This document shows, piece after piece, positions 35,514 through 36,650 of a DNA stretch of 64,000 bases. Location: NCBI RefSeq assembly GCF_056712565.1, contig NZ_CM160072.1; one strand, 5' to 3'. Position numbers and translations under genes: made by a program. Position 1 is the stretch's first letter; every line of letters starts with the position of its first letter. Below the pieces are notes generated by a model. The model worked only from the letters and a program-made list of their open reading frames with translations, searched no databases and was not told the origin of the DNA.

Positions 35514-36650
35514 ATGGGATGGCCTGTACCCGATATTCCAGAAAGAAAAATGCTACCTGAGCCTGTTTATCGACGCTGGATTATATTATTAATATCTATG
35601 TTAACAGTTGGTACTCTGTTTATTTTATCGGTCTGGAATTCTGCGACATACTGGGATATTTTTATTTATGGCGTTCTGCCAATGCTGTTTCTTTGGCTAT
35701 GTTTGTTTGGTATTGCGCTGAACAAATATGAACAATCCGTTGCAGCCTGTATAAGTTGGGAGTCTGAAAGACAACAAGTTAAACAACTCTGGCAACACTG
35801 GAGCCAAAAACAACTGGCAATAGTTGGGAATGTTCTTTTTACACCGGAAGAAAAAGGCATGAGTGTTTTACTGGGGCCACAGGAAGAGATCCCTGCATAT
35901 CCTAAAAAGGCACGACCGTTATTCTCTGCATCCCGTTATTCTCTTTCGTCTATATTCCATGATATTCACCAGCAACTGACACAACAATTTCCTGATTATC
36001 GTCATTATCTACATACTATCTACGTATTACAGCCTGAGAAATGGCGTGGAGAAACCGTGAGACAGGCTATTTTCCATCAATGGGACTTAGTACCTGAACG
36101 GACCAATACTCTTAATCAAATCCAGTCTCTTTATGATGAAAGATTTGACGGTCTAATTCTGGTTGTTTGTTTACAAAACTGGCCGGAGAATAAACCTGAA
36201 GATACGAGTGAACTGGTATCAGCACAGCTTATCTCCTCATCGTCATTTGTACGGCAGCACCAGATACCCGTTATTGCTGGTCTGGGGCGTGTAATGCCAT
36301 TAGAACCCGAGGAGTTGGAGCATAATCTGGATGTGTTATTTGAATATAACCAATTGGATAACAAACAACTACAGCATGTCTGGGTCTCTGGTTTAGATGA
36401 GGGAACGATAGAAAACCTTATGCAGTATGCTGAACAACATCAATGGTCACTTCCTAAAAAACGGCCCCTACACATGATTGATCATTCCTTTGGCCCTACA
36501 GGAGAGTTTATTTTTCCTGTCTCTCTGGCAATGCTGTCAGAGGCTGCCAAAGAAACTGAACAAAATCATTTAATTATCTATCAGTCAGCACAGTATGCTC
36601 AGAAAAAGAGCCTTTGCCTGATTACCCGGAAGCTTTATTTAAGGACATGA
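35514..36650 (+). CDS. hypothetical inner-membrane protein between PAAR and tssM
   Basis: 378 aa from ATG 35514; two N-terminal TM helices then a soluble domain; AT-rich; no motif recognised. Confidence 0.5.
   Translation: MGWPVPDIPERKMLPEPVYRRWIILLISMLTVGTLFILSVWNSATYWDIFIYGVLPMLFLWLCLFGIALNKYEQSVAACISWESERQQVKQLWQHWSQKQLAIVGNVLFTPEEKGMSVLLGPQEEIPAYPKKARPLFSASRYSLSSIFHDIHQQLTQQFPDYRHYLHTIYVLQPEKWRGETVRQAIFHQWDLVPERTNTLNQIQSLYDERFDGLILVVCLQNWPENKPEDTSELVSAQLISSSSFVRQHQIPVIAGLGRVMPLEPEELEHNLDVLFEYNQLDNKQLQHVWVSGLDEGTIENLMQYAEQHQWSLPKKRPLHMIDHSFGPTGEFIFPVSLAMLSEAAKETEQNHLIIYQSAQYAQKKSLCLITRKLYLRT

Follow-up and report, generated by a model that had tools for sequence, protein, structure and literature searches.

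A predicted thiolase-fold protein with a membrane hairpin in the effector cassettes of Escherichia coli T6SS-1: a candidate tethered adaptor for the VgrG spike

How an effector-loaded VgrG/PAAR spike is matched and recruited to the TssJLM membrane complex of a type VI secretion system (T6SS), and how Escherichia coli can swap effector cassettes without breaking the machine, are questions on which the locus described here bears. We analyzed 64,000 nucleotides of contig NZ_CM160072.1 (RefSeq assembly GCF_056712565.1; the whole stretch is called the window, and positions are counted in it), a segment of an E. coli chromosome that carries the T6SS-1 cluster, and asked what is encoded by the gene between the PAAR gene and tssM, here labeled X. 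An earlier reading of the letters alone (the original prediction) had left three options for its product: an immunity protein, an adaptor or a membrane-targeting effector. We propose, with a probability of roughly one half, that X is a non-enzymatic, cassette-specific and non-secreted T6SS protein that is held at the inner membrane by a tether and serves the VgrG spike as adaptor or docking factor, because its modeled domain resembles the lipase adaptor Tla3, its gene occupies the same cassette position as tla3, and it co-varies with the C-terminal extension of VgrG. An adaptor or accessory role is thus favored among the earlier options on the basis of fold and position, while immunity and effector roles are disfavored.

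X encodes a predicted membrane hairpin followed by a thiolase-like domain

The 378-aa open reading frame (ORF) that the original prediction placed between the PAAR gene and tssM was confirmed, with RefSeq giving identical coordinates (WP_001514353.1; Table 1). A GTG-started ORF of 415 aa (from 35403, overlapping the PAAR gene) was rejected as the gene, since the homologs all begin with MxWPIP and RefSeq uses the shorter frame. A single base separates the PAAR stop codon from the ATG of X (TAA-T-ATG), and translational coupling from PAAR to X is therefore likely. X is under purifying selection, as judged by a dN/dS (ratio of nonsynonymous to synonymous substitution rates) of 0.17 against an E. 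coli allele of 94.6% identity. The sequence is 100% identical in ATCC 11775, UTI89, S88 and other extraintestinal pathogenic E. coli strains.

Two N-terminal transmembrane (TM) helices had been foreseen and were found both by hydropathy and in the structural model. The only hydrophobic stretches lie at residues ~22-41 and ~46-68 (Kyte-Doolittle 19-residue windows, maximum 2.4), and no window beyond residue 100 scores above 0.9. The AlphaFold2 model, built from a 42-sequence alignment, is very confident (mean per-residue confidence score, pLDDT, 94.2; predicted template modeling score, pTM, 0.89). It comprises a short conserved N-terminal segment, a helix at residues 19-41, a turn of four residues, a helix of 52 residues (46-97) whose first part is TM2, and an alpha/beta domain at residues 100-378. 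Because basic residues flank the hairpin at both ends and the turn is uncharged, we predict an N-in/C-in topology that would leave the thiolase-like domain in the cytoplasm.

The soluble domain had been described as lacking any recognizable motif, which is correct at the sequence level. Searches of Pfam, NCBIfam and PDB sequences with X were all blank; 58 relatives (42 + 16) scanned singly against Pfam gave no match, including none to PF11394 (DUF2875); and sequence and profile searches of the PDB with the family returned noise only, a 3-oxoacyl-ACP synthase III at E 1.1 being merely a hint. The fold, by contrast, could be recognized: the model shows the five-layer arrangement of thiolases and shares it with the crystal structure (8yz3) of Tla3 (PA0259, DUF2875), the type VI lipase adaptor of the Pseudomonas aeruginosa H2-T6SS. 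The top Foldseek match was a chain from the AntDE ketosynthase/chain-length-factor complex, which we take to be the non-catalytic partner in that complex.

Across the 42 family members only W96 and R259 are invariant, with W3, W93 and W290 nearly so, and no alignment column contains at least 50% Cys, His or Asn. The catalytic Cys-His-His/Asn machinery of the superfamily is therefore absent, and X is most likely a scaffold.

Divergent X alleles accompany different effector cassettes in E. coli

A tssM body at least 90% identical to that of the window occurs in 1,247 complete E. coli genomes, at 95% or more in all but 10, and only 185 of these genomes carry the X allele of the window. The commonest allele, of 404 aa (X404, 996 genomes), stands in the order VgrG, SLT-domain protein, small ORF, X404, TssM, with no PAAR gene between. 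Another, of 477 aa (X477, 95 genomes, including CFT073, Nissle 1917 and ABU 83972), stands in the order VgrG, Tli3, Tle3, PAAR, X477, TssM. Both are about 20% identical to X and were recovered by the hidden Markov model (HMM) of the family, X404 at E 1e-35 and the two halves of an X477 split by an insertion sequence at E 1e-13 and 8e-21. The Sci-1 cluster of enteroaggregative E. coli (EAEC) 042 represents a separate T6SS-1 lineage (TssM 45% identical to that of the window) with the order VgrG-Tle1-Tli1-Tli1-PAAR(EC042_4537)-EC042_4538-TssM. Here EC042_4538, a hypothetical protein of 382 aa found in 55 genomes, matches the family HMM at E 1.9e-45.

E. coli T6SS-1 holds at least four X alleles, about 20% identical to each other, which together are found in about 1,330 of 5,426 complete genomes. 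In all four variants examined this position is taken by a member of the X family, each effector cassette (Tle4-like in the window, Tle3, Tle1 with EC042_4538, and the SLT-domain protein) having a highly divergent allele of its own, and the family appears to be ubiquitous in E. coli T6SS-1.

Two observations concern X477 itself. This Tle3-associated allele (in Nissle 1917 at locus L047, 6371-7804) ends in two further hydrophobic helices, which form a C-terminal pair. Strain 25DN (L044, 5581-8266) has its X477 gene interrupted by ISEc52, and its vgrG contains an internal stop.

The family marks the 3' end of VgrG modules

Homologs at E<=1e-3 numbered 128 in one search and 93 in the other. Proteins of ~370 aa with 40-58% identity to X are abundant in Enterobacterales, and homologs occur in Pantoea, Enterobacter, Klebsiella, Cronobacter, Cedecea, Serratia, Photorhabdus, Yersinia and other genera. 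Remoter relatives have 25-30% identity, some being 390-480 aa long, and distant ones were also found in Neisseria genomes and in Burkholderiales entries of the AlphaFold database. The order VgrG - PGAP1-type lipase - Tli4 - (PAAR) - X - TssM - TssA was seen in 25 Enterobacterales genomes, as far as the contig reaches; exceptions among the Enterobacterales loci are an Enterobacter locus (L023), where X follows straight after vgrG, and L029, which has no tssM after X. The family sits at the 3' end of VgrG-effector-immunity-(PAAR) modules.

The family is not tied to tssM. Locus L042 reads Tle3-Tli3-Tli3-Tle3-Tli3-PAAR-X (462 aa) and continues with unrelated genes on the opposite strand; a vgrG island of Neisseria ends with an X-like gene followed by mgtE; and a metagenomic contig (L010, 10001-11107) encodes an orphan relative of 368 aa, 25% identical to X, between gltX and a HIT-family gene. 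The neighbors of this orphan are zipA, ligA and gltX, with no T6SS gene within 10 kb. Nor is the family tied to lipases, because X404 accompanies the SLT-domain cassette.

The Prokaryotic Genome Annotation Pipeline names both WP_001514353.1 in E. coli S88 (NC_011742.1) and the 477-aa Nissle allele "KPHS_23130 family T6SS system protein", a locus-tag name that conveys no function; the corresponding model is not in NCBIfam release 20.0. Gene lists based on VFDB count KPHS_23130 among the T6SS(-I) genes of K. pneumoniae. Literature searches for EC042_4538 and KPHS_23130 found no functional study of the family, and the gene is not discussed in the papers on Klebsiella T6SS profiling, on Tle3 of adherent-invasive E. 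coli (AIEC) or on the EAEC PAAR protein. Papers on X-bearing clusters place the variable region "between vgrG and PAAR", passing over the X gene, and a Ralstonia paper describes lipase clusters that occupy the variable stretch lying upstream of tssM. A member of the family, EC042_4538, is thus present and unstudied in EAEC Sci-1, the system in which T6SS architecture was worked out.

X lies inside an exchangeable unit and co-varies with both of its ends

X had been described as AT-rich like the cargo genes, in contrast to a GC-rich tssM. The contrast in composition is real (41.1% GC and 34.8% at third codon positions in X, against 61.4% and 70.7% in the tssM body; the lipase, Tli4 and PAAR genes have 35-46% GC, similar to X), but the AT-rich block does not end with X and extends through codons 1-105 of tssM (41.3% GC). 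Breakpoints in identity were located by comparing three E. coli alleles from a single tssM lineage. Their VgrG proteins are 94-100% identical from residue ~50 to ~550, 73-88% over the first 50 residues and 19-58% beyond ~550, while in TssM the identity is 15-29% for the first ~100 residues and 90-100%, mostly 96-100%, after ~150. Because these breakpoints coincide with the steps in GC content, the exchangeable unit can be delimited as VgrG codon ~550 to TssM codon ~105, with X included. The AT-rich cassette, not the conserved core, is where the TM1-TM2 hairpin of TssM and the VgrG C-terminal third belong.

To quantify co-variation, the matrix of pairwise identities of X was compared with those of its neighbors over up to 20 loci (Spearman rho, P-values from Mantel permutation). 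X tracks the N-terminal 105 residues of TssM (rho 0.91, P = 0.0003) and the C-terminal 200 residues of VgrG (rho 0.81, P = 0.0003), and less closely the rest of TssM (rho 0.40, P = 0.0013) and PAAR (rho 0.35, P = 0.011). No relation was seen with TssA (rho 0.05, P = 0.32) or the VgrG N-terminus (rho -0.04, P = 0.59). The original prediction had suggested a check of co-variation with the upstream effector, which proved weak: the lipase gave rho 0.35 (P = 0.056), and X follows the VgrG C-terminus and the TssM N-terminus instead. The VgrG C-terminus tracks X far better than do the lipase, immunity and PAAR genes that lie between. The pattern persists without any E. coli loci, in a common subset of seven loci (TssM N-terminus 0.87, VgrG C-terminus 0.82, lipase 0.06) and when the rest of TssM is controlled for (partial correlations of 0.84-0.93).

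X as a proposed membrane-tethered counterpart of Tla3

Tla3, an adaptor located in the cytoplasm, binds both Tle3 and the transthyretin-like (TTR) domain at the C-terminus of VgrG2b, and its gene closes the series vgrG2b-tli3-tle3-tla3 (PMC6560169). The X gene sits relative to the lipase where tla3 sits relative to tle3, and the E. coli Tle3 cassette has the P. aeruginosa gene order with a PAAR gene inserted. Both proteins combine a thiolase-like fold with a gene beside a tle lipase in a vgrG island. They differ in that Tla3 is soluble whereas X carries a TM hairpin at its N-terminus (with a second, C-terminal one in some alleles), in that X occurs with at least four effector types and not solely with Tle3, and in that X in the main clusters abuts tssM, usually after PAAR. 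By analogy, X would work most like Tla3, yet it departs from it in two defining properties, the match to DUF2875 and solubility.

The adaptor proposal builds on the fold, the position that the gene keeps, the anchoring in the membrane, the co-variation and the fact that catalytic residues are lacking. The domain predicted to be cytoplasmic would bind the C-terminal extension of the cognate VgrG, with or without the loaded effector, as Tla3 does, and the TM hairpin would keep this complex at the inner membrane beside TssM/TssL, perhaps in contact with TssM. Before firing, the effector-loaded spike would thereby be stabilized or be offered to the membrane complex, and X itself would remain in the producer cell. 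What would be new in X is a thiolase-fold T6SS adaptor or chaperone with an inner-membrane tether and a linkage to the cassette.

Several points weigh against this proposal. The 58 family members scanned show no sequence similarity to Tla3/DUF2875, and the fold of X matches Tla3 no better than it matches true ketosynthases, so that common ancestry with Tla3 in particular is unproven by the model; the soluble state of Tla3 is a further difference. EAEC Tle1 and AIEC Tle3 have been reported to bind their own VgrG directly, with no adaptor, and X is therefore not needed for the Tle-VgrG contact in vitro. The co-variation may reflect hitchhiking of neighboring segments in one recombination block: the TssM N-terminus is physically adjacent to X, and linkage alone can account for its rho. 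Lipase identities are compressed to ~40%, a narrow and saturated range that may partly explain the weak lipase correlation. Finally, X was joined to TssM(1-390) in one chain through a Gly/Ser linker of 35 residues and modeled with AlphaFold2, which reached a pTM of 0.50 and a mean pLDDT of 76 from a shallow alignment (17 paired rows). Both bodies fold, their relative arrangement is not confidently predicted, and the result is weak negative evidence for a fixed complex that weighs little either way on contact.

A more far-reaching version of the adaptor proposal, which we put forward tentatively, is that every cassette (VgrG C-terminus, effector, immunity protein, PAAR, X and TssM N-terminal hairpin) has a matched docking interface and acts as an "adapter plug". 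The thiolase-like domain of X would grip the VgrG C-terminal extension of the cassette, and its TM hairpin would pair with the cassette-encoded TM1-TM2 hairpin of TssM, coupling the loaded spike to the membrane complex. If true, this would account for recombination breakpoints that lie within vgrG and tssM instead of at gene borders. As a protein that co-varies with the TssM hairpin as well as with the tip of the spike, X is a concrete and testable candidate for a link between cassette and membrane complex. A membrane-anchored, Tla3-like protein of this sort would also extend the emerging theme of dead thiolase-fold proteins as T6SS spike chaperones.

Alternative explanations

In a less probable reading, X serves the membrane complex as an accessory subunit, with its hairpin packed on the TssM TM1-TM2 hairpin and/or TssL, and is needed for TssJLM assembly or gating whatever the effector. 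In nearly every Enterobacterales locus, as in one distant relative from a metagenome, X directly precedes tssM, and the two genes often overlap; the strongest co-variation of X is with the TssM N-terminus and persists given the rest of TssM (partial rho 0.85-0.93); and the breakpoints in composition and identity coincide at tssM codon ~105 in the three E. coli alleles. Against this stand the islands without tssM (L042 and Neisseria) and the orphans, the linkage that adjacency by itself creates at the 5' end of tssM, and the fusion model, a weak test. X has no IcmF-related domain by Pfam and has in common with TssM only the architecture of an N-terminal TM hairpin. The published work on TssJLM in EAEC, as summarized in PMC10715212, names only TssJ, TssL and TssM.

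We consider it unlikely that X is a chaperone of the small PAAR protein, shielding it or setting it on the VgrG tip. There is precedent in TvpD/PA0098, a ketosynthase-like protein proposed as PAAR co-chaperone (PMC13373197), and "thiolase-like" proteins recur in DUF2169-type spike modules (PMC11883445). TvpD/PA0098 (PRK06147, "3-oxoacyl-ACP synthase"-like) and the IPR040771 proteins of the pef-type clusters of Proteus mirabilis resemble X in being catalytically silent members of vgrG-PAAR modules with a proposed chaperone role at the spike tip. According to their descriptions they are set apart from X by being soluble and partnered by DUF2169 (TvpA), DUF6484 and DUF4150-type PAAR proteins, whereas X neighbors VgrG, lipase, Tli4 and a canonical PF05488 PAAR protein, with DUF2169 and DUF4150 in none of the loci examined. 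In many loci, the window among them, the PAAR stop and the X start overlap or are separated by 1-3 bases, and the pair is kept in L042, where tssM is absent. However, X404 has no PAAR gene beside it, nor do the Enterobacter locus L023 and the Neisseria island, and PAAR identity tracks that of X weakly. In the published cryo-EM structure the EAEC PAAR protein caps the VgrG-Tle1 tip, and no X-like subunit is described.

An immunity protein or a secreted, membrane-targeting effector is very improbable, and both readings were rejected on predicted topology, context and conserved position. The AT-rich composition, the place inside the variable region and the membrane association of X would fit either. 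Tle lipases act, and are neutralized, in the periplasm. An immunity role is unlikely because the large domain of X is predicted to be cytoplasmic, which is not the periplasmic or lipoprotein location of such proteins, and because the respective cassettes have Tli4, Tli3 and Tli1 genes dedicated to that role; X itself has no match to a Tli family in Pfam or NCBIfam, and it is kept with the SLT-domain cassette, which has no lipase. An effector role is unlikely because the position of X is the same whatever the effector, and no immunity-like gene lies 3' of X, where tssM is next. In the window X is an intact ORF, while the adjacent lipase and tli4 are broken.

Ketosynthases are ~400 residues long; the X domain has ~280 residues and ~10% identity to ketosynthase, chain-length-factor and thiolase enzymes (PksA KS, AntDE, FabF, FabH), from which it also differs in being membrane-anchored and T6SS-encoded. 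That X is an active enzyme of the thiolase superfamily, such as an acyltransferase acting on membrane lipids or on the lipase, is scarcely credible and was rejected because the catalytic residues are not conserved, the solved T6SS relative Tla3 is an adaptor, and an allelic identity of ~20% would be unusual for an enzyme with one fixed substrate.

The cluster around X

The gene order of the cluster is tssB-tssC-tssK-tssL, an OmpA-family gene, hcp, clpV, vgrG, lipase, tli4, PAAR, X, tssM, tssA and further genes (Table 1).

Table 1. Position of X, its parts and the neighboring features in the window
Feature	Position	Strand	Basis and remarks
clpV	26802-29447		window annotation
vgrG	29459-31939		window annotation; RefSeq name "DUF2345 domain-containing"
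Variable VgrG C-terminal part (from ~residue 550, codons ~550-826)	31109-31939	+	identity drop between E. coli alleles, co-variation with X
Tle4-like (PGAP1-type) lipase gene	31959-33718	+	two overlapping ORFs, 31959-33125 and 33107-33718; RefSeq
Tli4-family immunity gene	33693-34788	+	two ORFs, 33693-34526 and 34495-34788; RefSeq
PAAR gene, class-1	35252-35512	+	sequence, NCBIfam T6SS_PAAR_dom, RefSeq; directly 5' of X in most loci
Gene X	35514-36650	+	378 aa; ORF and translation, RefSeq WP_001514353.1, homologs, dN/dS
N-terminal TM hairpin of X (predicted)	35568-35717	+	TM1 ~19-41, TM2 ~46-68, 4-residue periplasmic turn; hydropathy, charge, AlphaFold2
Thiolase/ketosynthase-fold domain of X (predicted cytoplasmic)	35811-36647	+	residues ~100-378; Tla3-like
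Whole tssM	36660-40013		directly 3' of X
AT-rich 5' part of tssM, codons 1-105 (TM1-TM2 hairpin and linker)	36660-36974	+	GC step, identity, co-variation
Conserved tssM body (ImcF-related)	36975-40013	+	RefSeq, identity between alleles

The lipase gene of the window is probably a pseudogene; intact homologs in other loci encode 535-611 aa, and intact Tli4 genes 363-379 aa. E. coli CU37RT-2 (L049), whose X allele is the one of 94.6% identity, has an intact lipase of 595 aa and two full-length Tli4 genes. Between the window and this strain the stretch from PAAR through X to the 5' part of tssM is 94% identical, and the lipase/tli4 stretch 81%, with 26 gap openings. The ATCC 11775/UTI89/S88 lineage appears to be losing its effector/immunity pair to decay, with PAAR, X and tssM still intact ORFs.

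In E. coli STEC17-190 (L046, 8282-11608 and 15168-18019) tssM has an internal stop, and the tssA and PAAR-toxin module is partly duplicated, with copies that are pseudogenes. These changes add to the indications that T6SS-1 is decaying in some lineages of E. coli.

The TssM protein of the window has no Walker A motif ([AG]xxxxGK[ST]) anywhere in its sequence; where the P-loop presumably lies in other TssM proteins (residues ~101-135 here, 36960-37060) it reads LLLVTGEPEEAEAIAPGL.

Between tssA and tssF (41622-44900) there is another AT-rich island of cargo genes, with 30-42% GC. It holds a PAAR-domain protein of 525 aa (41622-43199), presumably a specialized toxin, followed by an ORF of 213 aa (43187-43828) with a hydrophobic N-terminus, possibly an immunity protein, and more small ORFs beyond.

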